Shown one piece after another: positions 3 through 56,100 of a stretch of DNA of 64,000 bases. The position numbers and the translations under genes were made by a program. Position 1 is the stretch's first letter, and each line of letters opens with the position of its first letter. Source of the stretch: Flavobacteriales bacterium. Its GTDB lineage: Bacteria; Bacteroidota; Bacteroidia; UBA10329. The notes below the pieces were generated by a model. The model searched no databases. It was not told where the DNA came from and saw only the letters and a program-made list of their open reading frames with translations. The stretch is taken from the NCBI GenBank assembly GCA_021739625.1, contig JAIPBJ010000006.1:5334-69333 (forward strand), read 5' to 3'.

Positions 3-1196
3 AAGGACATCATCTCAAAACTGGAGAAAGGCCAGATTCTCGAAGGCACCGTCAAGAACATCACCTCCTACGGTGTATTCATCGACCTTGGTGGCGTGGA
101 TGGTCTGGTACACATCACCGACCTCAGCTGGGGCCGCGTGGCACATCCGGAAGAGATCGTTACACTGGACTCCAAGATCAACGTGGTCATCCTCGACTTT
201 GATGATGAGAAGAAACGTATCGCTCTTGGCATCAAGCAACTTTCTGCCCATCCATGGGACGCTCTGAGCGAGACCGTAAACATCGGTGACAAGGTGAAAG
301 GTAAAGTGGTGGTGATCGCTGACTACGGTGCATTCGTTGAAGTGGCCCCCGGTGTTGAAGGTCTGCTGCACGTGTCAGAAATGAGCTGGAGCCAGCATCT
401 GCGTACCGCTCAGGACTTCCTCAAAGTAGGTCAGGAAGTAGAATGCGTGGTGCTGACCATGGATCGCGAAGAGCGCAAGATGTCACTTGGCATGAAGCAA
501 TTGACCCCCGACCCATGGGACAATATCTTGGCCAAGTATCCGGTCGGTTCGCAGCATACTGCCAAAGTTCGCAGCTTCACCAACTTCGGCATTTTCGCTG
601 AACTGGTTGAGGGCGTTGACGGCCTTGTGCATATCTCCGATCTGTCTTGGAACAAGAAAATCAAGCATCCGTCAGAGTTCACAAGCATCGGTGCAGATAT
701 CGATGTGGTGGTTCTCGAAGTGGATGCTGAGAATCGCAGGCTCAGCCTTGGCCACAAACAGTTGGAGGAGAATCCATGGGACACCTTTGAAACAGTGTTC
801 AATGTGGGAAGTGTCCACAAAGGCACCATCACCTCATCCAACGACAAGGGTGCTACCGTTATGCTCCCTTATGGTGTGGAAGGGTTTGTTCCCAAACGTC
901 ACATGAAAAAAGCTGACGGCTCTGAACTTGCCAACGAGGAGACTGCCGATTTCGAGGTCATCGAATTCAGCAAGGACACGAAACGTGTGGTAGCATCACA
1001 TGCCAAGATCCACTCCGATGCGGCCTATGACGCCAAACAAGGTGAACAGAACGAGCGCAAGGATGCGGCAGCATCCACAGCGAAAGGTGTGAAGAAGGTG
1101 CAGAGCAGCATCGAGAAGACCACCCTTGGCGATCTGGACGCATTGGCCAACCTGAAAACAGAAATGGAGGCCACAGAGAAGAAAAGGAAGAAGTAA
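3..1196 (+). CDS. rpsA: 30S ribosomal protein S1, 5'-truncated (frame open to window start; gene continues upstream)
   Basis: Repeated S1 RNA-binding domain pattern (GxxVxGxVxxIxxYGAFV..GLLHxSExSW / DGLVHISDLSW) recurs four or more times; lysine-rich C-terminal tail; translation in frame 3 is open from nt 3. Confidence 0.88.
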   Translation, partial: KDIISKLEKGQILEGTVKNITSYGVFIDLGGVDGLVHITDLSWGRVAHPEEIVTLDSKINVVILDFDDEKKRIALGIKQLSAHPWDALSETVNIGDKVKGKVVVIADYGAFVEVAPGVEGLLHVSEMSWSQHLRTAQDFLKVGQEVECVVLTMDREERKMSLGMKQLTPDPWDNILAKYPVGSQHTAKVRSFTNFGIFAELVEGVDGLVHISDLSWNKKIKHPSEFTSIGADIDVVVLEVDAENRRLSLGHKQLEENPWDTFETVFNVGSVHKGTITSSNDKGATVMLPYGVEGFVPKRHMKKADGSELANEETADFEVIEFSKDTKRVVASHAKIHSDAAYDAKQGEQNERKDAAASTAKGVKKVQSSIEKTTLGDLDALANLKTEMEATEKKRKK

Positions 1197-4294: not shown

Positions 4295-5839
4295 TTAGCC
4301 GTACAAGTGCGCAGACGTGTAGTCCACCTCATATCTCCTGCCCTGCAGCCTGTTGTTGAACCAAGTGTGAAAGCAGATCAGTTCGGGGGTCTGAACCTGC
4401 CAGGCATCAACACCTGTCCTTTGCTTCAACTTTCCCAACTCCCTATCCTTGGAATGGGCCACTGCTGCAAAATCATAGCCCAATCTTCTAAGTTCCACCA
4501 ATATGTCCACAATATGCTTGTCACGCGGCCTCAATACGGCCAGCTTCAATCCCTCCCTCACAAACTGTCTGAGATTGAGGATGAGTGCATCAGCATGGTC
4601 GTAATCTGCAAGATCGATCGCATTGAGGATGTTGAGAACTCGCAGACCTATGTTCCAGCCCTCTTTATCCTGTCCAATGGTCTGACTATGTGATAAAAAC
4701 CTGCGCACATTACCATGATTGCCCAGACAGAACTCGACACATGCCATAAGATAGCCGCGCACAGCCTTCTGAAATTCACTTTGATCGATGGCCGGATCCG
4801 AAACAAGCGACTCCAGCGTACGTTTCGCCATTATCAGATTGCCAGAATAGAACTGAGCACGGAACAGATATTCCATCATCAGTGCATGATTTCTGGAATT
4901 GGGGCGCAAGTGTGTCAACGATTCCTTGAAAAAATCAGCTGACTCTTCAAATTGATGCATCCACATCGCGTTGGCACCGCTATTGGCATAAGCGGTCGCC
5001 AATCGGATTCGATTGCGAATGGCCGGACTGTGTTCCACTATGTGGGACAATTGGAGCAGATGCCTTGCTGCCTCTTCCAATTGTCCCTGCAACTGATGGA
5101 GCTCTACTCGCAACAGGTGATAATAGTATCCGACAATGGCGGCCTTTGTAACTTCAAAATCCACCGCCAATTCATTCACCCGTGTCTCCACAAATGCCAA
5201 TCGCTCGCTATCTGCCACTGCATGGTTCAACCCCTTGAAACCATACTGCCTTGTCACTTCATCAAAATAGGTCCGTGCCCTGACCTCAGCATCACGAATT
5301 GCGGAGAACAGCAGGATCTCATCCTTCAGAGCCGATACTTCTGAATCGGAAGTCCGGCCAGAACGATATTGCCTTTTGATGAACAACATCTCCATCAGGT
5401 CATGGAACAGCTCATATTTCTTGGCCAACATGATAGACCTCTCCAATTCACGCAACCCCGCATCGCGCTGCCCTCGGGCCACGAGCATCTGGGCTGCAAT
5501 CTTGCCCTGTGCAACCTGAGCCCGCGCCTGGGCAATGTCATCATACACCTCTTGTCTGACAATGTTGACATCGAGTGTGAGACTGGCGAGCACCTTCTCA
5601 TAGAGCCTTGAAAGCACCATTCTTCGGGCATCAGCAGTAAGCACCTTCTTGCTGAAGAGTTGACTGACACGGTGATCATCAGAGTACTTCTCAAGCAGAT
5701 CGAGCAGCATCAACGTCTTGGGCTTATGGCCTTTTTTCCGCGACTCGAAGCATTGCAGATAGTTGCGCAAGACCGTGCGCTCGTTGGCATCCATCATAAA
5801 AAGGACACCTCGGACGCGCGCAATGCTTTTTGGGCTCAT
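4295..5839 (-). CDS. Hypothetical all-alpha (TPR-like?) protein, 514 aa, no recognised family
   Basis: Long uninterrupted ORF with reasonable codon usage; visibly lower GC than neighbours; no catalytic motif recognised. Confidence 0.55.
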   Translation of the reverse strand: MSPKSIARVRGVLFMMDANERTVLRNYLQCFESRKKGHKPKTLMLLDLLEKYSDDHRVSQLFSKKVLTADARRMVLSRLYEKVLASLTLDVNIVRQEVYDDIAQARAQVAQGKIAAQMLVARGQRDAGLRELERSIMLAKKYELFHDLMEMLFIKRQYRSGRTSDSEVSALKDEILLFSAIRDAEVRARTYFDEVTRQYGFKGLNHAVADSERLAFVETRVNELAVDFEVTKAAIVGYYYHLLRVELHQLQGQLEEAARHLLQLSHIVEHSPAIRNRIRLATAYANSGANAMWMHQFEESADFFKESLTHLRPNSRNHALMMEYLFRAQFYSGNLIMAKRTLESLVSDPAIDQSEFQKAVRGYLMACVEFCLGNHGNVRRFLSHSQTIGQDKEGWNIGLRVLNILNAIDLADYDHADALILNLRQFVREGLKLAVLRPRDKHIVDILVELRRLGYDFAAVAHSKDRELGKLKQRTGVDAWQVQTPELICFHTWFNNRLQGRRYEVDYTSAHLYG

Positions 5840-12905: not shown

Positions 12906-12987
12906 CGACCTGCACGAATTCAGTGGAATTCCTTTCGCCCTGTCCCTTACATCTTATGCCTTACGCCTTATCCCTTACGCCTTCACT

Positions 12988-15507
12988 CTAAAACTTCGCC
13001 ACCAGCTTCACATTCAACTGTCGCGATGTGAGGTAGTTCGGCACAGCATATTGGCGGTTGGTGATATCAGAGATCCAAAGGTAGGACAGCGTATTGTTGG
13101 TTCCCAGCAGGTTGAACACCTCCAGACTCACCCACAGCGACTTGAGGTAGTGCAGCGGATTCTTCTTGGGAAACTCCTTCTTCTCGCCCTTTATCATGTA
13201 GGAGAAACCGATATCGACCCTGCGGTAGGGCGGAATGCGCAACGTGTCCTGATAGCGCTGGCTGTCGGGCGGACCAAAGGGCATGCCTGTGCCCAGCACC
13301 AGATTGAGGTGCATCTTGAGCATGGGCAGGCGCGGCACATAGTCCTGAAAGAAGAGGGAGAAGTTTACACGCTGGTCGGTGGGGCGCGGAATGTAGCCTG
13401 GCTCCACACGGGTGCTGTCCACCGGCACATTGTTCTCGGTGATACCGAACTGGATCTGCTCACCATCGGAGTTGTAATAGTTGTAATAGAAATCGTCCTT
13501 GATGTCCTCCTGCACGGTCATCACGCTCACGCTGGCCCACGACTCTATGCCCTTGACGAACTCACCGTTTATCTTCAGGTCGAGACCTGTGGCATAGCCC
13601 CTTGCGTTGTTGGTGGCGTAGTAGCGGATGCGCACGTTGTCGATCTCGTAGGGCACGATGTTGTCCAGATACTTGTAATAGACCTCGGCCACGAGCTTGA
13701 AAGGACGGCCCCAAGCGAAGAAATTGTAGTCGGTGCCGATGACCGCATGATAGGATTCCTGCGCTTTCAGGTTCTTGTTGAGCTGACCATTGAGGTCGCG
13801 CAGCTCGCGGTAGAAAGGCGGTTGATAGTACATGCCGCCCGACACGCGGAACACCACATCGCGCTTCCATCTGGGGTTGAAGGCATAGCTGGCGCGGGGC
13901 GTGGCGATGAACTGGCCGTTCACATCCCAATAGTTGAATCGGACACCGGCCGTCAGCGTGTGCTTCGAGGTGTCGGAGAACAGCCATGTGTTCTGCAAAT
14001 GGCCGGAGATGCGGTTGCTCTGAAGGCTGAGGTCGGTCTTCAGCACATTGGACAACGTAAGTTCATTCGGACTGAGCGGAATGCTGTAGCCCGATGAGTC
14101 GTTCATGTTCCATTCGTTCAGCTCATCGGTGATGTACTCGTGCTGATACTGGAGGCCCCAGTCCAGCTTACGGTGGCCGTCCAGCCAATGGCCGATGTGC
14201 TTCACTGTTCCCACATTCACCGTCAGGTAATTCCTTGCATGGTCGAGGAACGTGCCGATGCCCCTGTTGAAGGCCACCTCGCCCAGATTGTCGCTGCCGA
14301 AATTGTTGTCGAGCACCCCCAGCCAGTATTGGCCCTGCACATCGAAGGTCTCGCTCTCGTTGCTGCGATAGCCCGAGGCGATGAACTTGAAGCGCAACCG
14401 CTGATCGGGACGGTACTCGGCCGTGAGCGCGCCCGTCATCGTCTCGAACGTGTTCACCTCCTGCCCATCAAAGAACACAGTGAAGCGCAACGCCTCGCTG
14501 ATGGTGCCGAAATCGGTCTCGCGGTTCTCTGGGATGAAGCGGTACTGATTGAGCGAATAATGGCCAAGAAAACCGATGTCCCACTTGTCGTTCACCTCAT
14601 AATTGAGCAGCGCCTGCGCGTCCCAGAACTGTGGTTTGTACTGCCCGTCCGTGTCCAGACTGCCCAGCACATAAGAGTTGCTGCGATAGCGCAGACCGCC
14701 TATCCAAGAGAACCTGTATTCCTTGGTCGCCCCTTCCAAATGCAGCGCACCGCCCAGCAGACTGCCCGATGCGGTGGCCGCGAACGAGCGTGGCCTTCTG
14801 TATTTCACATCGAGCACAGAGGAGAGCTTGTCGCCATACTTGGCCTCGAACCCGCCTGCCGAAAAGCTGATGCCCTCCACCATGTCGGGGTTGATGAAGG
14901 TGAGTCCCTCCTGCTGCCCGCTGCGCACCAGGAACGGACGGTATATCTCCACATCGTTCACATAGATGAGGTTCTCGTCATAGTTGCCGCCCCGCACATT
15001 GTATTGCGAACTGAGCTCGTTGTTGCTGCTCACCCCGGGAAAGGTCTTGAGCAAAGCCTCGATGCCACCGCCTGCCGATGGAATGATGACGGCCATCTTG
15101 GGGTCGATGCGCTGCATGGTGCTTTTGCGGTTGCTCTCGTCAGATATGAGCACCTCGTCCACCACATTGTCCTTCAGTTTCAGGATGCGGTTCAGGGTGC
15201 GCACCTCCCCTGCTGCGAGGGTGATGTCGTAGCCCTGAGGCTGAAATCGGATGTGCGAGAACGACAGCCGCACCTGCTGCCCGGCAGGCACCTGCACATT
15301 GTAGGATCCGAGGCTGTCCGATGCCGTGCCGAAGCTCGTGCCAATCACCGCGATGCTCACATAAGGAATGCCCATGCCCTGCTCATCGCGCAGTTGGCCC
15401 TGCACTGTGGCGCGGTCCTGGGCTTGGGCCAATGGGGCGATGGCCGACAGCATCAGCACAAAGACCAATGGCCAGACGAGACGTGGCCTGCTGTTGCCGA
15501 AACCCAC
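12988..15507 (-). CDS. TonB-dependent outer-membrane receptor with N-terminal carboxypeptidase-regulatory-like domain; most likely GTG start at 15507
   Basis: GTG at 15507 precedes a canonical signal peptide (GFGNSRPRLVWPLVFVLMLSAIAPLAQA|QD). This is followed by a CarbopepD_reg domain, a plug domain, a long beta-barrel and a C-terminal aromatic residue (..LVAKF). The ORF-track ATG at 15807 would translate the 21-bp repeat array as an N-terminal extension ahead of the signal peptide, which is implausible. Confidence 0.8.
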   Translation of the reverse strand: MGFGNSRPRLVWPLVFVLMLSAIAPLAQAQDRATVQGQLRDEQGMGIPYVSIAVIGTSFGTASDSLGSYNVQVPAGQQVRLSFSHIRFQPQGYDITLAAGEVRTLNRILKLKDNVVDEVLISDESNRKSTMQRIDPKMAVIIPSAGGGIEALLKTFPGVSSNNELSSQYNVRGGNYDENLIYVNDVEIYRPFLVRSGQQEGLTFINPDMVEGISFSAGGFEAKYGDKLSSVLDVKYRRPRSFAATASGSLLGGALHLEGATKEYRFSWIGGLRYRSNSYVLGSLDTDGQYKPQFWDAQALLNYEVNDKWDIGFLGHYSLNQYRFIPENRETDFGTISEALRFTVFFDGQEVNTFETMTGALTAEYRPDQRLRFKFIASGYRSNESETFDVQGQYWLGVLDNNFGSDNLGEVAFNRGIGTFLDHARNYLTVNVGTVKHIGHWLDGHRKLDWGLQYQHEYITDELNEWNMNDSSGYSIPLSPNELTLSNVLKTDLSLQSNRISGHLQNTWLFSDTSKHTLTAGVRFNYWDVNGQFIATPRASYAFNPRWKRDVVFRVSGGMYYQPPFYRELRDLNGQLNKNLKAQESYHAVIGTDYNFFAWGRPFKLVAEVYYKYLDNIVPYEIDNVRIRYYATNNARGYATGLDLKINGEFVKGIESWASVSVMTVQEDIKDDFYYNYYNSDGEQIQFGITENNVPVDSTRVEPGYIPRPTDQRVNFSLFFQDYVPRLPMLKMHLNLVLGTGMPFGPPDSQRYQDTLRIPPYRRVDIGFSYMIKGEKKEFPKKNPLHYLKSLWVSLEVFNLLGTNNTLSYLWISDITNRQYAVPNYLTSRQLNVKLVAKF

Positions 15508-15754
15508 CGATGGTCCGTGGATGCCCACCGATGGTCCGTGGAGGCCCACCGATGGTCCGGGGATGTCTACCAGTGATCCGTGGAGGCCCACCGATGATCC
15601 GTGGAGGTCCACCGATGGTCCGTAGAGGTCCACCGATGGTCCGTGGATGTCCACCGATGGTCCGTGGAGGTCCACCGATGGTCCGTGGATGTCCACCGAT
15701 GGTCCGTGGAGGCCCACCGATGATCCGTGGAGGTCCACCGATGGTCCGGGGATG
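15503..15754. repeat. Tandem array R1: 12 copies of a 21-bp unit (consensus CCACCGATGGTCCGTGGATGT), intergenic, abutting the receptor start codon
   Basis: Direct reading: 12 head-to-tail 21-mers with a few point differences (GGATG/GGAGG alternation), open in several frames on both strands. Confidence 0.9.
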
Positions 15755-15810
15755 TCTACCGGTGTGCGGTCTGCGTCATAGAGATCAAGGCGTGCAACTT
15801 TCCTCACCGC

Positions 15811-16524
15811 TCAGTCCTTCTTCTCTCTACGTTTGAACTCCCCATTCTTCCACGCTTTGATGAACCGAGCCCATGCCAGCGGGTTCAGCAGGTTGTTGGG
15901 CGGGAGCTGCCCGGCATAGTAGAGCCTTGCCGCGTGCTGCTGCATGGCATATTTGAAGTTCTCGCTGCCGTCCATGCCCATGGCATCGGCCCGCTCGCGC
16001 ATCTCGAACCACTCCAGATTGCGCATGGCCACCTGCTTGTCGTCCTCGGGCAGACGCAGGTCGAGGAATGCCTGTCTGAACTGCTCCTTGGTGGGCCATG
16101 GATAGACCACCGCCTCCTGAAGCAGGAAAGTGTCGGCACTCATCATCTGAATGAGAGAATAATTGCGGCTGTTCAGCGTGTCGGGAATCACGAACTCGCT
16201 GTCCTTGAAGCCCAGATACGAGAACACGATGGTGTCGAACGGCTCTGCCACGAACGAGAAATAGCCGAAATAGTCGCTGATGGTGCCCCTTCGCGAATTC
16301 TTGACAATGATGTTGGCGAAAGGAACCGCCTCAAGACTGTCGGCCGTGAGCAGCACGCCCGAGAACTGGATGAGCCTGCGCTGATCCTTGGGAACCTCCT
16401 TGTTCTGGCCCACCGCCTGCGTTGCGGACAGCACTGTGAGAAGGATGAGCAGCAGGAACGGGGAATGTATGATGGGTCTCATGGGGCGCGGACGATAACG
16501 TGAACTGAGGGCGGATATTTCCAT
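15811..16524 (-). CDS. Carboxypeptidase-regulatory-like domain protein (signal peptide; probable start at ATG 16482)
   Basis: Signal peptide MRPIIHSPFLLLILLTVLSATQAVGQ; CarbopepD_reg-like beta-sandwich pattern (FSGVLLTADSLEAVPFANIIVKNSRRGTISDYFGYFSF). Confidence 0.55.
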   Translation of the reverse strand: MEISALSSRYRPRPMRPIIHSPFLLLILLTVLSATQAVGQNKEVPKDQRRLIQFSGVLLTADSLEAVPFANIIVKNSRRGTISDYFGYFSFVAEPFDTIVFSYLGFKDSEFVIPDTLNSRNYSLIQMMSADTFLLQEAVVYPWPTKEQFRQAFLDLRLPEDDKQVAMRNLEWFEMRERADAMGMDGSENFKYAMQQHAARLYYAGQLPPNNLLNPLAWARFIKAWKNGEFKRREKKD

Positions 16525-41507: not shown

Positions 41508-41675
41508 TTCATCAGAATGAGGTTTTCCTTCATCAGAATGGAGAATTCCTTCATCAAAAATCAGAATTCCTTCATCAGAATCGAAAATTCCTTCATCAAA
41601 AATCAGAATTCCTTCATCAGAATGGAGAATTCCTTCATCAGAATGGAGCATTCCTTCATCAGAACCCTCAGATCT
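41508..41675. repeat. Tandem array R2: 8 copies of a 21-bp unit (consensus TTCATCAGAATGGAGAATTCC) in the convergent gap between nosY and the outer-membrane gene
   Basis: Direct reading of 8 head-to-tail 21-mers with internal variants (AATGGAG / AAAATCA / AATCGAA); begins 19 nt after the nosY stop and ends at the stop codon of the minus-strand gene. Confidence 0.9.
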
Positions 41676-44873: not shown

Positions 44874-46583
<1,710 letters not shown>

Positions 46584-46838
46584 GCATAAGGCTCGCATAG
46601 CCTCGCGGTTCCTTTTTCCTGATGGTCGTTTTCGATGGTCGTTACTGATCGCCCTTGGCGGCAGTGGATGCCTTAACTTCAATATACAGAGGACTACGTA
46701 GGGCCGGTTCAATGCCCTGAATGTCCTTTGACCGTTGAAGGCCGGCCGGTCACACTGGCCTCCAAGGAATCCAGAAACCTTTCAAACGGGGCGGATCTGA
46801 AAAGCCAAACGAGTAGGGAACCCAAAGACCACATCATC

Positions 46839-48077
46839 ATGAACACAGTTTCTACACTCAAAAACCTTCCGATCGCACTGGTCCTGGGCCTCGCCCTTCT
46901 GCAATCGGCATCGGCCCAAACATGGACACTGATGGACGAGACCTTCACCCAGAGCATGAAGGAAATCGAATTCTTCGATGAGAACACAGGCATCGTAAGC
47001 CGGGGCTATGCCATGAACACGACCTCAGATGGCGGCACCTCATGGGGCAGCGACATCGATTTCACATGGACAGTGAACGCGCTCAAGTACACCGGGGGAT
47101 CCACCCTTTTTCTGGGCACCGGAAACGGCACGATCTTCAAATCTGTGGACGGTGGTGCCAACTGGTCTCAGATTGGAGGCTACATCGTCAGCGACATCCG
47201 CAGCATGGCCTTCAATGGGTCGAACGGCATTGTGGTGGACAACAACTGCAAGATCGCATGGACCAGCAATGGTGGCGACAGTTGGACTGCCATACCAAGC
47301 GATGACCTCTGCGGAAACCTGAGCCGCTTGGACCATGTGGACATGCCCTCCTCGACCGTGGCCTATGCGGGCGGAAACAACGGATACATGTTCAAGTCAA
47401 CGGACGGTGGTCAGACTTGGACGGCCATCACCTCACTGCCAGCAGAATTCGATGATATGAGCGGAATGTCGTTCCCGACCACCGAGGTGGGCTACATCAC
47501 CGGCAGCGTAATGAACGAGAATACGGCACTTGTGCTCAAGACCACCGATGGCGGTGCCAACTGGACGGACATCAGCGCTGGTCTGACCCAGAGCATATCG
47601 GACATCTTTGCAGTGAACGCCACCACAGTGTATGTGGGTGCAGGGGGCAACAAGATCTACAAGTCAACGGACGGAGGTGACAATTGGGCCGTGGATTATA
47701 CCCATCCTGTCTGCACGCAGTGCGCCATCAAGGAATTCGATCTGGGCGGCACCACGCTTTATGCCCTGTTCGACAACGGTGGAGAGCACAAGAAGATCGT
47801 GAAGCTGGCCAACGCCACGGTAGGGATCAACGACACACCGGACCAGAACACCTTCAGTGTCCGTCCCAACCCGAGCAATGGGATATTCAGCATCACTTTT
47901 CAAAAGGCCCCCGTACAACTGGATGTCTATGACGTTCTGGGCAATCTGTTGTTCTCAAAGGGAAACCTTTCCCTCACCAATGTTCAACTGGATCTGAGCC
48001 ATCTGTCCAAGGGCATTTATGTGATGAAGGCGTTCGATGGCACTGGCGCAAGCACGCAACGGTTGGTGATCGACTGA
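46839..48077 (+). CDS. Secreted BNR/Ycf48-like beta-propeller protein with T9SS type-A C-terminal sorting domain
   Basis: Signal peptide (LPIALVLGLALLQSASAQ); repeated S-x-D-G-G-x-(T/N)-W BNR motifs; C-terminal LDVYDVLGNLLF...KGIYVMKAFDGTGASTQRLVID CTD. Confidence 0.7.
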   Translation: MNTVSTLKNLPIALVLGLALLQSASAQTWTLMDETFTQSMKEIEFFDENTGIVSRGYAMNTTSDGGTSWGSDIDFTWTVNALKYTGGSTLFLGTGNGTIFKSVDGGANWSQIGGYIVSDIRSMAFNGSNGIVVDNNCKIAWTSNGGDSWTAIPSDDLCGNLSRLDHVDMPSSTVAYAGGNNGYMFKSTDGGQTWTAITSLPAEFDDMSGMSFPTTEVGYITGSVMNENTALVLKTTDGGANWTDISAGLTQSISDIFAVNATTVYVGAGGNKIYKSTDGGDNWAVDYTHPVCTQCAIKEFDLGGTTLYALFDNGGEHKKIVKLANATVGINDTPDQNTFSVRPNPSNGIFSITFQKAPVQLDVYDVLGNLLFSKGNLSLTNVQLDLSHLSKGIYVMKAFDGTGASTQRLVID

Positions 48078-48103
48078 CACCTGCCCGGAGCTTTGAAGGA
48101 AGA

Positions 48104-48135
48104 AGGCTGTCTCCCACACGGGGGCAGCCTTTTTC
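48104..48135 (+). terminator. Rho-independent terminator (GGCTGTCTCCCACACGGGGGCAGCC + TTTTT)
   Basis: Hairpin with ACAC loop and T-run 27 nt after the stop; shares the core TCCCACACGGGGGCA with the terminator at 6290-6324. Confidence 0.6.
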
Positions 48136-48342
48136 CATGACCTGCAAGCCCTGTTCGAAGACCGATGGAATGCAGGACGTTACGGCAGCAGGAGACATGC
48201 AATTCATCGCCCCGACACGGGTCTGCAACCGTGTTCGGGCATCGCACTGGCACAAGGGAACGGGTCATCTTCTTCCACATAAATCCTGATGCCCGCCCCC
48301 CTCTGCTAATCATATCTTTGCCGCCCTTAATTCTCAATTGGA

Positions 48343-50223
48343 ATGGATAAGAACTCGGCCATCGGGCTGACACTGATACTGCTGATATTCGTTGGATTCA
48401 GCTATTTCAACCAACCCTCGGAAGAGGAGGTCGCGGCTGCGAAGCACTCACAGGACTCGGTGGCGGCCGCACAGATAGAGCAACAGCAGGCACAGGAGAT
48501 GGCCGTTGTGAAGGAGGCCATCACTGAGCTTCCCACGGGGTTGGACACCACCCTTACGGACTCGGCCGCGCAGGTGGCGCTCACCTCACAGTTCGGGGCT
48601 TTCGGGGCTGCGGCCAAGGGCGAGGACGGTGTGGTGGTGCTGGAGAACGATGTGCTGCGCATGGAGGTGAGCCGCAAGGGCGGACACCCGCTGTCGGTGC
48701 AACTGAAGGACTACCGGACCCACGACTCGCTGCCGCTGATGCTCTTCGAGGGAGAGCAGAACCGGTTCGCTCTGGAATTCTTCTCGCAGAACAGGCGCAT
48801 CAGCACACAGGACCTCTATTTCCAACCATCGAACGAGGGCATCACCGTGACGGGCGATGGCGAGCGCAACCTGAGCATGAGGCTGAATGCCGGAGAAGGC
48901 CGCTATCTCGAATATGTCTATACGCTGAAGGGCAATGACTACATGGTGGATTTCGACATCAACCTTGTAGGGTTCGACCAGCTGATGGAGCGCAATGCCA
49001 CGAGCATCGACCTGCATTGGCGGGCCGACATGCCTTCGCAGGAGAAGAGTCTGAAGACCCAGCAGGAGAGCAGCACGGTCTATTACCGTTTCAATGACGG
49101 TGAAGTGGATTATCTCTCTGAGCGCAAGGACGAGAAGCAGAGCTTTGTGAACCGGTTGCAGTGGATCGGTTTCAAACAGCAGTTCTTCAGCACGGTGCTG
49201 ATCGCAGAGAGCGGTCTGGAGCCGCCCAGCGAGGTGGAGACCATTCACGATGAGGCCAGCCTCGATGTGGTGAAGACCTGCGATGCGCGGCTCACGCTGC
49301 CATTCGCGCATGGTGCGATGGAGCAGGTGGCGTTCAGATTCTATTTCGGCCCCAACCACTACAAGACACTGAAATCGTACGACATCGGCCTCGAACACCT
49401 CATTCCGTTGGGCTGGGGCATATTCGGGTGGGTGAACAAGTATGCGGTGATCCCCGTCTTCAACCTGCTGAGCGGGACCGGATGGAGCTATGGCATCATC
49501 ATTCTGATACTGACGCTGCTGCTGAAACTGATACTGGCGCCATTCACCTACAAGAGCTATCTGAGTTCGGCCAAGATGAAGGTGCTGAAACCGGAGATCG
49601 AGGAGCTGAACAAGAAATTCGAGGGCAAGGACGACCCCATGGCCAAGCAGCAGGCCACCATGGCGCTCTATAGCAAGGCGGGGGTGAACCCGATGGGCGG
49701 CTGCCTGCCCATGCTGCTGCAGATGCCCATTCTCATCGCCATGTTCCGGTTCTTCCCTTCAAGCATCGAGCTGCGGCAACAGCCTTTCCTGTGGGCCGAG
49801 GACCTGAGCAGCTATGACAGCGTTCTGAGCCTGCCGTTCGAGATTCCGTTCTATGGCGCCCACGTGAGCCTGTTCACCATACTCATGACCATCAGCACGC
49901 TCATATACACGCATAAGAACATGGCCATGAGCGCGGGCAACCCGCAGATGGAGCAGATGAAATGGATGATGTACCTCATGCCCTTCACCATGCTGTTCTG
50001 GTTCAACAGCTATGCATCGGGACTGAGCTACTATTATTTTCTGGCCAACATGGTGTCGTTCGGGCAGACCGCGCTTTTCCAACGTTTCGTGGACGAGGAC
50101 AAGCTCCACAAACAGATTCAGGAGAACAAGAAGAAGCCCGTGAAAAAGTCGGGGTTCCAGAAGCGTTTGGAGGACATGGCGAAGAGCCGTGGCTACGAGG
50201 CCCCCAAGCCGAAGAAGAAGTGA
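48343..50223 (+). CDS. yidC: Membrane protein insertase YidC
   Basis: Large periplasmic domain followed by the conserved five-TM core (..GWSYGIIILILTLLLKLILAPFTYKSY..PMGGCLPMLLQMPIL..) and a basic C-terminal tail. Confidence 0.9.
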   Translation: MDKNSAIGLTLILLIFVGFSYFNQPSEEEVAAAKHSQDSVAAAQIEQQQAQEMAVVKEAITELPTGLDTTLTDSAAQVALTSQFGAFGAAAKGEDGVVVLENDVLRMEVSRKGGHPLSVQLKDYRTHDSLPLMLFEGEQNRFALEFFSQNRRISTQDLYFQPSNEGITVTGDGERNLSMRLNAGEGRYLEYVYTLKGNDYMVDFDINLVGFDQLMERNATSIDLHWRADMPSQEKSLKTQQESSTVYYRFNDGEVDYLSERKDEKQSFVNRLQWIGFKQQFFSTVLIAESGLEPPSEVETIHDEASLDVVKTCDARLTLPFAHGAMEQVAFRFYFGPNHYKTLKSYDIGLEHLIPLGWGIFGWVNKYAVIPVFNLLSGTGWSYGIIILILTLLLKLILAPFTYKSYLSSAKMKVLKPEIEELNKKFEGKDDPMAKQQATMALYSKAGVNPMGGCLPMLLQMPILIAMFRFFPSSIELRQQPFLWAEDLSSYDSVLSLPFEIPFYGAHVSLFTILMTISTLIYTHKNMAMSAGNPQMEQMKWMMYLMPFTMLFWFNSYASGLSYYYFLANMVSFGQTALFQRFVDEDKLHKQIQENKKKPVKKSGFQKRLEDMAKSRGYEAPKPKKK

Positions 50224-50258
50224 GCATGGGTTCAAGGTTCAAGGTTCAAGGTTTGGGG

Positions 50259-50762
50259 ATGATGGCCGCACTCAGTGCGATACTGTTGACCGGCAGTTGC
50301 AAAAGCAAGGAACAGACCACGGTGAGGCCCACGGAGACCACAACCTCTGCGACCACAACTGCCACCGAAGGCCCGGCCATTCTGGCCACCATAGAGCGCA
50401 CCTCGTGCTTCGGCAGTTGCCCCATCTACAAGGCCACCTTTTTCGACAATGGCGAGGTGATGTATGTGGGCAGGAATTTCGTGACCAACATCGGCACCTA
50501 CACCACCCTCATCTCGGCCGAAGAGCTGCAAGGGATAAGGACCATGGCCGAGGACGTGGGCTATTTCCTGCTGGAGGACGCCTATCCCACCCCCATATCG
50601 GATTTCCCGAAATGCATCACATCGGTGCAGATGGACGGGAAGAAGAAGAGCGTTCTGAACGGTGAGAACGCCCCGCGCGACCTGATCGGTCTTGAGCGCC
50701 ACCTCGATGGCCTGCTGAAGGAACGCGAATGGGTGAAGGTGTCGGACGTGAGCCGCTACTGA
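50259..50762 (+). CDS. Hypothetical lipoprotein
   Basis: Lipobox MMAALSAILLTGSC followed by a Thr-rich linker; conserved-looking Cys pairs (SCFGSCPIYKA). Confidence 0.5.
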   Translation: MMAALSAILLTGSCKSKEQTTVRPTETTTSATTTATEGPAILATIERTSCFGSCPIYKATFFDNGEVMYVGRNFVTNIGTYTTLISAEELQGIRTMAEDVGYFLLEDAYPTPISDFPKCITSVQMDGKKKSVLNGENAPRDLIGLERHLDGLLKEREWVKVSDVSRY

Positions 50763-52333
50763 CCCGGCAGCGGTCTGCGCGACCGTTCCTTGATCTCGTT
50801 GGCGAGCATGTCGATGGCACCGTCCTGTGCATCGAGCCGCAGATAGGAGCCCTTGCCCCTGCGGGCGATGCGCTTCATCATCCGCTCGGCATCATCATCG
50901 CCAGCATAGCCTGCCACCGAAAGGATGATGCCCTTGCCGGCATGGTCGGCAGCCATGAGAATGGCATCCTTCTCGGTGAACGATGAGGAGTTGAACATGC
51001 CATCGGTGACCAGAATGAGCTGATTGTTGCCGCCCTCGACCCATTGCGCGGTAAGTTGGGCGTAGGCCTCCTTCATGCCTTTGACCCCACTGGTGTAGCC
51101 TTCGGCCTGGAGGTCGAAAATGAGGTCGATGATGGTCTCGGGCGCGGTGACGGATGTGGGGGGCAGCACGGTGAACACCGCTGCGTTGAACGCCAGCACC
51201 GAGAGCCTATCGATGGGCCGCATCATGCCGATGAGACGCGCGGCCGCTGCCTTGAGCCTGTCGAGCTTGGCATCCTTGTTCATGGACGATGAGACATCGA
51301 GCAGCAGCACGATGTTGTTGGGGCGATAGGTGGCCTCGGCAAATTCGGGGGCGGGCGCCTGCACTGCCGTGGCCGGTGGTGTCTGCTCCCCAACGGACAC
51401 TGGGGCCACTGGGGCAGCGGGCGGTTCGTCAAACTGGTCGTTGACGTTGATGCCAAGGTCGGTCTCCGGTTCCTCCACCTTTTTGGGAGGCTGTGGCACA
51501 GGCCGCACGGGCCCGGCCCATCGGTCTTCGGCCACCGGTTCCTCCATCTGTTCGTTGACGGAGACCCCCATGTCGGCCACCGGTGCTTCGGCCGGCACCC
51601 TGTGCACGGTGACCGCCTGGGCGGGCCGCTCAGGCTGTTGGGCGGGGGGCTGCATTCCGCCCTTCTTCCGGGGTTCGACCATGATGATGACGGTTCCCTG
51701 CCTGCGTTCGAGCGCAATCTCCTCCACGGTGGGCCGATAGTCGGGATGCTCCACCTTGGCTGTGAAGCGGCCCATCTCCAGTCTGGTGCGCACAAGTCCG
51801 CGACTGTCGGTGGTGTAGGTGGCGCGGCTTTCCTCTTTCTTGAACAGCCCGACCGTTGCGCCCACCACCTGCTGGCCCGTTGAGCGGTCCACCACGGTGA
51901 TGGTGCTGGTGCCCGAGGACTGTGCGGGCTGGTCTGCGCTGAATGTGGGGCAGGCGGTGAGGGCGTTGTTGCGGAGCGAGACGATGTTGCCGCGCAGGGT
52001 GAGGCGCTGCGGCCTGTCGGAGGCGTTGGAAAAGAGCTCCACCTCTTTGGAGAAGGGGCCGTTGTCGGCCGTGTAATAGTGGATGGTGACCTCGGCCGTC
52101 TCACCGGGGCCGATGCTCCTGTTGGGAAGGACGACCTGCACATCGCGCCCGAAGTGCTGGGGCAGGAACATGAGTTTTGACGTGCCGGTGTTGGTGAGGC
52201 GGAAGACCGCAGGCGGGCTGTCCCAATCGCGCACGGTGCCGAAGTTGAAGGAGGTGCTCTGCCAGTCTATGCGCTGCCCCGATGCCATGGAGCAGGCCAA
52301 TGTGATGAACAGGGAAAGCAGTGGGCGTCTCAT
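50756..52333 (-). CDS. von Willebrand factor A domain protein with N-terminal beta-sandwich region and central proline-rich linker (probable start at ATG 52333)
   Basis: Signal peptide MRRPLLSLFITLACSMASGQ; C-terminal VWA/MIDAS motif VLLLDVSSSM...LVTDG; low-complexity P/A/E linker. Confidence 0.7.
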   Translation of the reverse strand: MRRPLLSLFITLACSMASGQRIDWQSTSFNFGTVRDWDSPPAVFRLTNTGTSKLMFLPQHFGRDVQVVLPNRSIGPGETAEVTIHYYTADNGPFSKEVELFSNASDRPQRLTLRGNIVSLRNNALTACPTFSADQPAQSSGTSTITVVDRSTGQQVVGATVGLFKKEESRATYTTDSRGLVRTRLEMGRFTAKVEHPDYRPTVEEIALERRQGTVIIMVEPRKKGGMQPPAQQPERPAQAVTVHRVPAEAPVADMGVSVNEQMEEPVAEDRWAGPVRPVPQPPKKVEEPETDLGINVNDQFDEPPAAPVAPVSVGEQTPPATAVQAPAPEFAEATYRPNNIVLLLDVSSSMNKDAKLDRLKAAAARLIGMMRPIDRLSVLAFNAAVFTVLPPTSVTAPETIIDLIFDLQAEGYTSGVKGMKEAYAQLTAQWVEGGNNQLILVTDGMFNSSSFTEKDAILMAADHAGKGIILSVAGYAGDDDAERMMKRIARRGKGSYLRLDAQDGAIDMLANEIKERSRRPLPGQ

Positions 52334-52507
52334 GTGGCTAAAGGTAGCCAACGGGATGGGGGGAGAGGAGACCTGTTTCCCAGCGGAGACACATTCTCCA
52401 GCGGAGGGCTTTATGGAAAAGTGCCGACCCATGCCCTAAGGGCCGCTCCACATTGCTGTGGAACGGTTTTTTTTTGGTACTTGCCGATTCTTACAGTGAA
52501 ACCCTGT

Positions 52508-52738
52508 GATAGGAAATATGGAACACCTGATAGGAGAACTGAAACACCAAATAGGAGAAATGGAACACATGATAGGATATATGGAACATATAATAGGATG
52601 AACAGAACATCTGATAGGAGAAATAAAATGCCTGACAGGATACATGGAACATTTGATAGGATAAATGGAACATACGATAGGAAAGACTGAACATCTGATA
52701 AAAGAAATGGAACACACGTTAGGAGTGATAGAACAGAT
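52508..52738. repeat. Tandem array R3: 11 copies of a 21-bp unit (consensus GATAGGAGAAATGGAACATCT) in the divergent promoter region
   Basis: Direct reading of 11 head-to-tail 21-mers; AT-rich; lies between the start of the VWA gene (-) and the start of the hypothetical gene at 52820 (+). Confidence 0.9.
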
Positions 52739-52819
52739 GTGTTCCATGGCTCCGATCGCATGAGAGACCTGTACGGGCAAATGAATCTCGGAACCGGATA
52801 CCGTTAGAACAATGAATTC

Positions 52820-53467
52820 TTGAAGAACATGATCGACAGACCCTACACCTGCACCGACCCTCAGGCCGTTCAGCGCTGCGAGAGCATGCTGCTGGCCTAT
52901 GACGACCACATGGCCGCCTTCACTGCTCTGGACCCGGATTTCAATGCCACGTTCCGCAACGACTGGCGCGCGGCCATCGATGCCTGTATCGCCTATCCCA
53001 CGGATGAGAGCACGCTCGACCTGCAAAAGGGCCACGGGCAGGTCATTGACCGATGCATGGAACAGTGCCGCATGGCCCTTGCCGACCTGCGCTATTATGC
53101 CAAGAAGGCATACAGCACCAAGGGCCGCTACCGTGTGTTCGGGTTCGAGCGTCACAACAGATTGCGCGGTTCAACGGCCAACTATGCGGTGTTCATGCAC
53201 ACGCAGCATCGGCTGGCGCTGCGCTTTCAGCCCGACCTCGCGGCCAAGGGCATGACCCCTGCGCAGACCGATGCCCTGCTCACCTCTGCCACCGCCCTCT
53301 GGGATGCCGAAGTGGGGCAGGAGACCTTCAAACGCGAACGCATCCTGCACACCGTGGAGCGCAGCGAGGCCTTCCGCCATCTCTGGTCCTTTGTGCAGAG
53401 GTTGCAGCACGCGGCCGATGCCGTTTTTGAGAATGATGCGGTGGGAAGGGGGCTATTTGTGGGATGA
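52820..53467 (+). CDS. Hypothetical Cys-rich protein (215 aa), no recognised family
   Basis: GC-rich ORF with normal codon usage; no signal peptide; several conserved-looking Cys (C..C......C...C). Confidence 0.5.
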   Translation: MKNMIDRPYTCTDPQAVQRCESMLLAYDDHMAAFTALDPDFNATFRNDWRAAIDACIAYPTDESTLDLQKGHGQVIDRCMEQCRMALADLRYYAKKAYSTKGRYRVFGFERHNRLRGSTANYAVFMHTQHRLALRFQPDLAAKGMTPAQTDALLTSATALWDAEVGQETFKRERILHTVERSEAFRHLWSFVQRLQHAADAVFENDAVGRGLFVG

Positions 53468-53589
53468 TCGGGGCCGAGGAACGCGACAGGTATTGGAAGG
53501 TGATCGAGGGGAAGGTGGGGTGAGGGAGGCGTTGCCGCCCCGTCCACGTCCCTTCATAAAGGCTAATTTTGGCCGCAAGCAATAGCATC

Positions 53590-54825
53590 ATGGTCAACCG
53601 CATAGGCATAGGCAATTTCAAGTCGATCGACAAGCTGGAGTTCGAGCTTGGCCGCTTCAACGTGTTCATCGGTGAGAACGGCTGCGGAAAGAGCAACATC
53701 CTTGAGGCAATTGGGATGGGTGCTGCAGCGTCTGCCAATAAACTGGAGAATGAATTTCTGAGCAGTAGGGGCATTCGGGTTACCGATTCTCTTTACATGC
53801 GATCTGCTTTTTCTTCCAAAAACTCTGGGAAGGACATCAGCATTTCAATTCAGATTCGAGATATTGATGTGGAATGGTCGATTTCGAACGATAATCAACC
53901 GTACTCTTCATGGCAACAGGAAGCAGTTGTGAAAGATGGTGTCGATTCGTCCCCTGAAACTGAAGAACCATCCGAAGTTGACAGCCTATTGAAATCATGG
54001 AAGGCACTTGAGACGGACACCTACAATCTTTTAGTTGAAGAAAAAAAAACGGAAGATCCAACTCGTAAGAGAGAAATTGGAAAAGTTCTAAAGCGTGTGG
54101 AGGAATTCTTGCCTCGACTTCAGGAGACGTTTCAGCAAATAATTGCCAAGACGTTACACATACCCTTAGGGCAATTCCAGATTTACTCCCCTGAAAACTC
54201 GTCATTGAGGGCGTTTGAAAGAGAAGGCCAAATAGAGCCGTTGGGTCTCAAAGGCGAAGGGCTCTTCAAACTGCTTAAGACCTTTGCACACACAAATCCT
54301 GAAGCTATCCAACGGATCGCTGAGGAATTGCAGGTCTTCGATTGGTTTGAAAGCTTTCAGTTGCCAGACAAGACAATGTCGGACGAGCGGTACATCAAAG
54401 TGAAGGACCGCTTCCTTGATGATGCGCTGGATCAGTTCGACCAAAGGAGCACCAACGAGGGTTTCCTTTTCGTGCTCTTCTACCTCGCACTGTTTATCAG
54501 CAAGGACACGCCCAAGTTCTTCGCCATCGACAACATAGAGGCTTCGCTAAACCCTAAGCTGTGCAAGGAACTGATCGCCAAGCTCAACCGCCTTTCGGCA
54601 GAGAACAGCAAGCAGGTGATCATGACCACCCACAGCCCGGCCGTGCTCGATGGTCTCGACCTGACGGATGACGAACAGCGGCTGTTCGTGGTGTATCGCA
54701 ACAGTGAGGGGCGCACACGTGTAAGGCGGGTAGAGCCGCCCAAAGTGATGGCAGGCGAGGAGGAAGTGCCGCTGTCAGAGGCGTTCGTGCGCGGTTATCT
54801 CGGAGGCCTCCCTAAGAATTTCTGA
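53590..54825 (+). CDS. AAA_21-type ABC ATPase (OLD/PARIS AriA / AbiLi-like defence ATPase)
   Basis: Walker A GENGCGKSN, ABC-signature-like STNEGF, the AAA_21-diagnostic IDNIEASLNP block (variant of lIDEPEnsLHP) and TTHSP H-loop. A long inserted coiled-coil region lies between the N- and C-terminal halves. TAATTTTG promoter element at 53564-53571. GC is visibly lower than in the flanking genes. Confidence 0.75.
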   Translation: MVNRIGIGNFKSIDKLEFELGRFNVFIGENGCGKSNILEAIGMGAAASANKLENEFLSSRGIRVTDSLYMRSAFSSKNSGKDISISIQIRDIDVEWSISNDNQPYSSWQQEAVVKDGVDSSPETEEPSEVDSLLKSWKALETDTYNLLVEEKKTEDPTRKREIGKVLKRVEEFLPRLQETFQQIIAKTLHIPLGQFQIYSPENSSLRAFEREGQIEPLGLKGEGLFKLLKTFAHTNPEAIQRIAEELQVFDWFESFQLPDKTMSDERYIKVKDRFLDDALDQFDQRSTNEGFLFVLFYLALFISKDTPKFFAIDNIEASLNPKLCKELIAKLNRLSAENSKQVIMTTHSPAVLDGLDLTDDEQRLFVVYRNSEGRTRVRRVEPPKVMAGEEEVPLSEAFVRGYLGGLPKNF

Positions 54826-54828
54826 GCG

Positions 54829-55497
54829 GTGGCAAGGGTGTTCGGCATCATAGCAGAAGGACCGAGTGACATTGCTGTCATCCGGAACATCCTGACAGGC
54901 TATTTCTCAGACCCCGACCTTGAGTTGACCGAGATTCAGCCTGTGAAAAAACAGCCCAGTGGAGAGTATGAGGCGGGCGGCTGGAATCAGGTGCTGGCCT
55001 GCTGCGCCTCTGACCGCCTGCGCGGTGCCTTCCAGTACAATGAAGCAGTGATCATTCAGATAGACACCGATGTCTGTGAAGAGAAGGGCTACGATGTGTC
55101 CAAGCGGGGCGAGAAGGACAAGGTTGTGATGCCTGAGGAACTTATTCTCCGTGTGGAGGAGAAACTGTCCGCCCTCATCGGTACGGAGGTGATGGAGAAG
55201 TTCACTGACCGTATTTTGTTTGCGGTGTGCGTAGATGAACTGGAATGCTGGCTGCTACCGTTGTATTATACCGATAGGAAGAAATCCAAGACTACTGGAT
55301 GCCTGTCCACGCTCAATCAGGCTCTCGGGAAAAAGGAGGATTTCACCATTGATGTGAACAAGAAGAACCACCGATACTACGAGGTCATCTCTGAGCCATA
55401 CCGCAAGAAGCGAAAGGTATTGATGGCTGCCGCTGAGCAGAATGCGAGTTTCAAGGTTTTCATGGACAGGTTGAGCGCGAGGTTCGAAATGCCTTGA
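54829..55497 (+). CDS. TOPRIM-like (OLD-family / DUF4276-DUF4435-like) putative nuclease partner of the ATPase
   Basis: GTG start 4 nt after the ATPase stop (translational coupling). N-terminal IAEGPSD (conserved Glu) and IQIDTDVCEE (DxD) match the TOPRIM catalytic motifs of OLD-family nucleases. 222 aa. Confidence 0.5.
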   Translation: MARVFGIIAEGPSDIAVIRNILTGYFSDPDLELTEIQPVKKQPSGEYEAGGWNQVLACCASDRLRGAFQYNEAVIIQIDTDVCEEKGYDVSKRGEKDKVVMPEELILRVEEKLSALIGTEVMEKFTDRILFAVCVDELECWLLPLYYTDRKKSKTTGCLSTLNQALGKKEDFTIDVNKKNHRYYEVISEPYRKKRKVLMAAAEQNASFKVFMDRLSARFEMP

Positions 55498-56065: not shown

Positions 56066-56100
56066 AACGCCTGAGGCCAACGCTTCAGGCGTTTGTTTTT
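56066..56100 (+). terminator. Rho-independent terminator (AACGCCTGAGG...CTTCAGGCGTT + TGTTTTT)
   Basis: Hairpin plus T-run 33 nt after the lipoprotein stop. Confidence 0.55.

Follow-up and report, generated by a model that had tools for sequence, protein, structure and literature searches.

Phased arrays of binding sites are a familiar feature of plasmids and phages. Iteron plasmids, including pPS10, F, pSC101 and R6K, carry direct repeats of about two helical turns, with an inverted partial repeat before the rep gene. The repeats of partition centromeres are bound cooperatively by a small protein and also serve as an operator: R1 parC contains ten 11-bp repeats, F sopC contains twelve 43-bp repeats, and the omega heptads of pSM19035 are arranged in direct and inverted orientation. 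The operators of LytTR regulators (AgrA, ComE, PlnC), which are abundant in Bacteroidota, consist of two or three 9-bp direct repeats with a 12-bp spacer. Intergenic direct repeats of heptamers, whose function is unknown, have been described in Beggiatoaceae, Cyanobacteria and some Bacteroidetes (MacGregor 2015, PMC4679880), and our literature search on 21-bp arrays returned nothing relevant beyond this heptamer paper. A chromosomal phased array that is tied to a large uncharacterised protein family appears to be undescribed so far.

The array analyzed here, R3, is located in a window of 64 kb (the whole stretch of DNA that was analysed), and its parts and the homologous loci were listed in Table 1. 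Its direct units follow each other without gaps and in register, the register being that of the original prediction moved by one base, and Tandem Repeats Finder called a period-21 repeat without indels at 52507-52715/52735. Two blocks are conserved within the unit, (G)ATAGGA at positions 2-8 and (G)GAACA at positions 14-19, while positions 9, 11, 14, 20 and 21 are variable. When the pattern GATAGGA-N5-GGAACA was scanned over the window with at most 2 mismatches, 11 matches were obtained, compared with 1.03 expected from chance; all were within the array, and none of 100 shuffles reached this number. The matches comprised ten direct units and one inverted copy on the minus strand (52740-52757, 1 mismatch); direct unit 6 (52612) exceeded the mismatch limit. 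In leave-one-out scoring with a position weight matrix, exactly units 1-11 rose above the 99.5th percentile of the background. The array announced by the original prediction is thereby real, and its phase of two helical turns proved exact, no unit having gained or lost a base. The G+C content of the array was 35% compared with ~55% for the window, and the purine content of its + strand was 70%. Pairs of units were 57-95% identical (mean 70%), and the longest exact internal repeat was 14 bp. A 7-bp sub-periodicity was weak, with an identity at lag 7 of 0.37 versus 0.32 expected, and 0.70 at lag 21.

The direct array ends 91 nt before the start codon of the 212-aa gene and is joined to an inverted twelfth unit, and unit 11 and this inverted unit together form the dyad GAACAGATGTGTTC, in which the arms 52692-52716 and 52738-52762 are 72% complementary. 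The open reading frames predicted across the array had no family match, the + frame meets a stop in unit 9, and homologous arrays of other lineages would yield unrelated peptides; the description of these frames as repeat shadows was therefore reasonable, and the idea of peptide-coding units was dropped. A CRISPR was not recognized either, as the units stand head to tail and no unique spacers separate identical repeats.

R3 resembles iteron arrays in the strict phase of its repeats of about two turns (helical-phase direct repeats of 17-22 bp there, eleven exact 21-bp units here), in the partial inverted copy by the gene start, and in a lineage-specific sequence that diverges with the gene. However, eleven units are present here and 3-7 there, the locus is chromosomal with no DnaA box/AT-rich unwinding element, and the 212-aa protein has no plasmid or phage relatives and is not a winged-helix Rep (Rep_3/RepA-like), profile searches of Pfam, NCBIfam, PADLOC, PHROG and PDB sequences having found no family for it. 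With parC and sopC it shares about 10-12 contiguous repeats upstream of a gene, in which direct and inverted orientation are both possible. Differently, the unit is 21 bp long, the locus is chromosomal, and no ParA/ParM motor and no ribbon-helix-helix/ParB protein were found; what lies downstream is the gene of the helical 212-aa protein, then the PDC-M31A AAA_15 ATPase gene with its own -7 box. The centre-to-centre spacing of 21 bp is that of the LytTR operators, but eleven repeats are found here. By eye, the window unit fitted only the GTT core, on the reverse strand, of the LytTR consensus ([TA][AC][CA]GTTN[AG][TG]), whereas the unit of the distant locus L022 agreed at 8/9 positions; no LytTR gene was present among the neighbours examined. 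The heptamer repeats (STRR / TAACTGA type) are likewise intergenic tandem repeats typical of a lineage, arrays of 7 bp abound in the window and in its relatives, and 21 is 3 x 7. R3 differs from them in its true 21-bp unit, in its distance from the start codon (~90 nt versus a few nt) and in its tie to one gene family.

Table 1. Parts of the R3 module and neighbouring genes in the window, and homologous loci with the number of direct units
Feature or locus	Position	Strand	Direct units	Description
Terminator-like hairpin + T9	52443..52475	+		Stems CCGCTCCACA / TGTGGAACGG; left boundary of module
Spacer, T-run to first unit	52476..52506	+		31 nt, GGTACTTGCC...GTGAAACCCTG
Direct array (R3)	52507..52737	+	11	Consensus TGATAGGAGAAATGGAACACC, 11 x 21 bp
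Twelfth unit, inverted	52738..52762	-		Reverse complement CATGCGATCGGAGCCATGGAACACA; adjoins unit 11
Gene-proximal region	52763..52828	+		Presumed promoter and short leader; last ~45 nt conserved with L003
212-aa gene	52829..53467	+		All-helical, uncharacterised family; gene that the array accompanies
PDC-M31 ATPase and small partner	53569-55497	+		PADLOC: A E = 2.6e-76, B E = 2e-12
L003			at least 8, to contig end	Metagenome contig found via unit pattern; homologue 89% identical; same unit
L010			10 of 11-unit span	Protein 84% identical to window; 21-bp array upstream
L011			11	Protein 82% identical to window; 21-bp array upstream
L012/L018			10 (L012), 10 (L018)	Protein 76% identical; 21-bp array upstream
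L013/L020			12 (L013), 11 (L020)	Protein 48% identical; 21-bp array upstream
L014/L019			6 + about 6 inverted (L019)	Protein 45-46% identical; 21-bp array upstream
L015-L017			11 (L015)	Protein 42% identical; 21-bp array upstream
L022			11-12	Distant long-form member, low-GC lake metagenome lineage; 21-bp array upstream
L021				Protein 39% identical; very AT-rich upstream, weak periodicity; ambiguous

The gene to the left of the array is encoded on the minus strand and specifies a DUF1573 / CarboxypepD_reg / VWA protein. Its most probable start is the Met of the signal peptide at 52336; the public call of this gene begins downstream of that Met, and no exact protein match was obtained for the VWA product translated from Met 52336. 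With this start the array takes up about half of an intergenic gap of ~492 bp, which corrects the earlier statement that it fills most of a ~390-bp gap. The + strand hairpin with its T9 lies between the array and the VWA side, and no + strand gene is found in the window upstream of it. The 105 nt that separate the VWA start from the hairpin contain two copies of a 9-nt direct repeat CCAGCGGAG (52380-52410); this stretch could be the remnant of a lost upstream gene.

On the right side there are four + strand genes, for the 212-aa protein, the AAA_15/AAA_21 ATPase, a PDC-M31B-like protein and a 154-aa protein, and a + strand terminator-like site (56079-56093) follows the last of them. PDC-M31 has the status of a candidate defence system in PADLOC. 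An exact Bacteroidetes -7 box, TAATTTTG at 53564-53571, is the ATPase (PDC-M31A) gene's own, and homologues of the 212-aa gene have other neighbours; the 212-aa gene therefore probably does not belong functionally to the defence islet, although it had been taken as the first gene of an accessory islet. Its own promoter would lie within 52763-52828. In this region no exact -7 box (TAnnTTTG) was found, no promoter was recognised in the window copy, and no terminator follows the array in the window. At L013, L015, L020 and L022, exact -7 boxes are located downstream of the direct array, which indicates that the array stands upstream of the promoter. Sigma-54, ECF-sigma and IHF consensus sequences were also compared by eye with the spacer and the units and were rejected because spacing or bases did not fit.

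Comparison of homologous loci indicated that the array belongs to the right-hand 212-aa gene, not to the VWA gene. The closest VWA orthologues, 67-70% identical, kept the YidC / DUF6438 / VWA synteny with other upstream neighbours, and no such array was found at the orthologous VWA loci. In one assembly a VWA locus (L005) and a family gene with its array (L020) are placed on different contigs, so the array is not a property of the VWA promoter. Loci were then gathered for every retrievable homologue of the 212-aa protein, by which nine lineages were sampled. An upstream array with a period of 21 bp was present in 8 of the 9 (L003, L010, L011, L012/L018, L013/L020, L014/L019, L015-L017 and L022), the proteins being 25-89% identical to that of the window. 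The framing of the region as a divergent promoter is consequently not supported: the array accompanies the 212-aa gene elsewhere, is absent at the VWA orthologues, and is separated from the VWA side by a + strand terminator.

The period was exactly 21 bp at all array loci, and lag 21 was among the top three autocorrelation lags (21, 42, 63) of every family upstream region, weakly in L021. The arrays were positioned 25-270 bp upstream of the family gene. No array was found at the long paralogues in L013, L015 and L020 or at the second paralogue in L011. The two-block pattern was also scanned against GTDB species genomes, without a match, and against JGI metagenomes, with three matches, of which L003 was the relevant one; L002 was discarded as a run of GATAGGA-like heptamers and L004 as a chance match. 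In L003, a hairpin-forming element GTCATGCTGACGAAGGAAGCATC...GATTCCTCGTTCCTCGGAATGAC was inserted between array and gene (about 810-1000, reverse strand), and a similar element CGTCATTGCGAGGGAGGAAC...CGAAGCAA was observed upstream of the hairpin in L013 (7382-7420) and L020 (about 4310-4400). This short element looks like a miniature mobile repeat.

Within the window, the 45 deviations from the consensus were concentrated at the variable positions named above, positions 5, 8, 16 and 17 were invariant, and the uneven spread of substitutions over the unit was significant (permutation p = 0.0006). Conservation followed the same positions in L003, whose array is independent (Spearman 0.85). Between these two loci the genes were 89.6% identical and their third codon positions 81%, whereas the core positions of the array were 88-100% identical and the variable positions 25-62%, that is, positions outside the blocks diverge faster than the synonymous sites of the adjacent gene. 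These results suggested that the blocks are under constraint and that the rest of the unit is turning over. The units of close relatives were related (GATAGGA...GGAACAC; GATATAGG...AGAACAC; GATAACCCGAATAGAACAC), and those of deeper branches could not be aligned (TAAGATGCTACGCTACACGCC; CAAGGAACATACATTGCATAA; TTCCGCCTTCTTACGTAAACG); GGA motifs were absent from the units of L015 and L022.

A gene-proximal dyad made of the conserved block was found in the window, L003, L010, L011, L015 and L019, and in L003 the terminal unit is inverted as in the window. In L015 the 11 direct units are followed by 11 degenerate inverted units that reach the start codon, the two arms being 58% alike, and these direct and inverted halves folded better than shuffles (z = -3.4). 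The left boundary was kept as well. The first unit is preceded, at a distance of ~31-48 nt, by a hairpin with T8-T10 and then GG in the window, L011, L013, L015 and L020; its stem differs between the window and L011 by the exchange of one pair (A-T to G-C), and in L013, L015 and L020 the hairpin ends an upstream paralogous gene with an extra C-terminal CarboxypepD_reg domain. The spacer measures 31-33 nt in the window, L011 and L015, starting with GG and ending with GAAA(C/G)..., and in L013/L020 the GG start recurs together with a GAAAG motif, the T-run being separated from the first unit by about 48 nt.

The 212-aa protein belongs to a family of 922 cluster representatives at E<=1e-3, and a protein search with a diverse family alignment returned only 'hypothetical protein' annotations. 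The AlphaFold2 model (pLDDT 88.7) was all-helical with helices of 36 and 56 residues, and its structure matches were generic helical bundles only. The family proteins are acidic to neutral (pI 5.4-7.0), and no DNA-binding domain was recognisable in the 212-aa protein; a conserved K-x2-R-x3-T-x2-R face on its long C-terminal helix is the sole hint that it might bind DNA. Members of ~310 aa carry an added C-terminal CarboxypepD_reg domain. Tandem paralogues were frequent (L013 6282-7238, L015 6506-7441, L020 3171-4169, L011 1233-1934): either the ~310-aa form precedes the array and its short-form gene, or a second paralogue follows the short form, and in such pairs the array accompanied the short form only. 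The neighbours varied by locus and included AhpC, DEAD helicase, acetyl-CoA carboxyltransferase, PAS response regulator, BatA and Kinase-PolyVal genes; no DNA-binding gene was a consistent neighbour across the loci examined. Housekeeping genes surround the loci, one of which is on a contig of 1.67 Mb, and a tblastn search of 72,556 plasmid and 50,697 phage records found no relatives of the 212-aa protein, nor was any confirmed in viral contigs by an IMG/VR scan.

The number of units was determined at ten loci as contiguous in-phase direct units with leave-one-out position-weight scoring (Table 1). In 7 of the 8 array-bearing lineages, including the most distant one, 10-12 direct units were found, usually 11. 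A Logan contig assembled independently from SRR12088350 was identical to the window over 46035-54898 (8.9 kb), array included. L013 and L020, which come from different samples, were 95% identical across the region, and their arrays were colinear unit by unit without indels.

These comparisons bear directly on the second mechanism that had been proposed, a slipped-strand switch in which copy number would alter promoter spacing or strength. Tandem repeats near promoters can behave in this way, and short-read contigs often break inside the arrays (L003, L014, L016, L017), so that minority length variants are compatible with the assemblies. Nevertheless, the units are too dissimilar and their exact repeats too short, and the comparison of copy number, which had been named beforehand as a check, revealed no variation wherever one could be made. 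Dissimilar units, identical or colinear assemblies and the steady count of 10-12 argue against slippage, which we regard as extremely improbable, and for stabilising selection on array length. The array might also be a by-product of a lineage-wide generation of 7n-bp repeats, kept at most as spacer, insulator or special DNA with no specific binder. Period 7 or 21 was indeed found in 11 of the 12 window arrays with at least 3.5 copies (R1 and R2 among them), the same habit in relatives implies that some general repeat-generating process exists, intergenic heptamer arrays are on record for some Bacteroidetes (PMC4679880), and distant lineages keep length and period with unrelated units. Such a process explains the origin of the array, but not the block conservation, which recurs in the independent array of L003, nor the terminal dyad made of the conserved block, nor the link to one gene family across distant lineages. 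The weak 7-bp sub-periodicity also speaks against it, as does a wedge model (approximate parameters) that predicted no curvature for R3, L011, L013 and L015 and led us to reject, for R3, intrinsic curvature as the common property. We consider a mere by-product rather unlikely.

Readings at the RNA level or as a site of replication or partition are, like the neutral repeat, less likely than an array of protein-binding sites. If the repeats acted as RNA, they would form a motif in a long leader or a separate transcript, serving as protein sponge or in translational control. The purine-rich + strand with AGGA and GGAA motifs in every unit, the lack of a recognised promoter between array and start codon in the window, and the folding of the L015 halves are in favor of this. 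A terminator just upstream of the array and none after it, the units of L015 and L022 without GGA motifs, and the -7 boxes that stand downstream of the direct array at four loci all conflict with it; the window array region folded no better than shuffles (z = -1.4), and Rfam gave no match at E<=1 in 52300-52900. The chance of an RNA role is accordingly small. The layout recalls that of the pPS10, F and pSC101 iteron plasmids, the neighbours of the gene differ between genomes, and in the window it adjoins a candidate defence pair, all of which would suit a mobile element, integrated or former, whose iteron origin or partition site is served by the 212-aa protein as initiator or centromere-binding protein. 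This is very unlikely, since neither match nor fold of a Rep, ParB or ribbon-helix-helix family was found, no ParA, ParM or helicase partner is present, plasmid, phage and IMG/VR searches were without confirmed relatives, the surroundings are those of housekeeping genes, and there was one near-DnaA box, fewer than chance predicts.

R3 has the appearance of an array of protein-binding sites under selection rather than of a copy-number switch. Two-turn phasing, position-specific constraint, a gene-side dyad and a fixed length form together the signature of multi-site protein binding, and the iteron-like cooperative array of the original prediction is kept as the best-fitting reading on account of the position-specific conservation, the terminal dyad and the preserved design, from which we infer protein binding, its cooperativity and the transcriptional output. 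In the mechanism proposed here, R3 would be the cis-acting half of a conserved two-part module, consisting of about eleven 21-bp-phased sites and a helical-bundle gene, and in most lineages the array ends in an inverted copy facing it. Each unit would be one binding site contacted at the ATAGGA and GGAACA blocks, and, the period being exactly two helical turns, all sites would lie on one face of the DNA. Binding would nucleate at the promoter-side dyad and then spread cooperatively along the array, and the nucleoprotein complex so formed, with its length fixed at about 231 bp, may set the transcription of the downstream gene, with the array as an operator or an upstream activating region. That the array is a same-face series of sites for a sequence-specific DNA-binding factor controlling the downstream gene has, in our estimate, an even chance of being right.

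The 212-aa product itself is one candidate for the binder, as array and protein diverge together and two paralogues of one metagenome-assembled genome (L018 and L019) have arrays unrelated in sequence; such co-divergence is also expected from common descent alone. A bolder version, which we hold possible though unlikely, is an undescribed self-contained system in which the helical-bundle protein or the CarboxypepD_reg paralogue polymerises on its own array into a filament of fixed length. One subunit or dimer would occupy every two helical turns, starting at the dyad, the filament would comprise 11 units, or 11 + 11 in the palindromic form, and cross-talk would be avoided by a unit sequence private to each paralogue.

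The array of protein-binding sites proposed above has a design that retains a period of 21 bp and about 11 units, whereas the sequence is a different one in each lineage. It gives a family of this size, which has no Pfam entry, a cis element that is usable as bait for a regulator, and it provides a concrete, testable case for the purpose of at least some of the unexplained 7-bp/21-bp intergenic repeats in Bacteroidota. Such arrays also regularly break short-read assemblies and draw spurious gene calls.

Other repeats were observed in the window. R1 (15504-15755) consists of twelve G+C-rich 21-bp units CCACCGATGGTCCGTGGAGGT with 88% identity at lag 21 and is located between two minus-strand genes; one (15811-16524) encodes a CarbopepD_reg_2 protein and the other a TonB-dependent receptor, the signal peptide of which starts right after R1. 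A long open reading frame over R1 with a heptad-repeat 'N-terminus' is probably a shadow. R2 (41511-41664) has a 21-bp unit ATCAGAATGGAGAATTCCTTC in ~7.5 copies and a super-period of 42 bp. It fills the gap between convergent genes for an ABC-2 permease and a 705-aa HHH_3 protein, and so has no promoter context, and it was absent at the orthologous site in relatives. The Rfam DUF805 RNA motif RF03081 was detected at 46759-46823 (+) with 57.3 bits, above the gathering score, and is located upstream of a BNR / Por_Secre_tail (type IX secretion) gene, not of a DUF805 gene. Intergenic heptamer arrays with 3.6-5.6 copies were found at 12945, 43789, 43838, 50229, 59581, 60120, 60171 and 63243, often just upstream of start codons. 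They also occurred in the orthologous gaps of relatives (L005, L006, L008, L009) with related or different units, AATTTTC / ATTTTCC / ATTTTCA upstream of a ~700-aa gene and GGTTCAA / CCAATAA / ACCTGTG in the YidC-DUF6438 gap.
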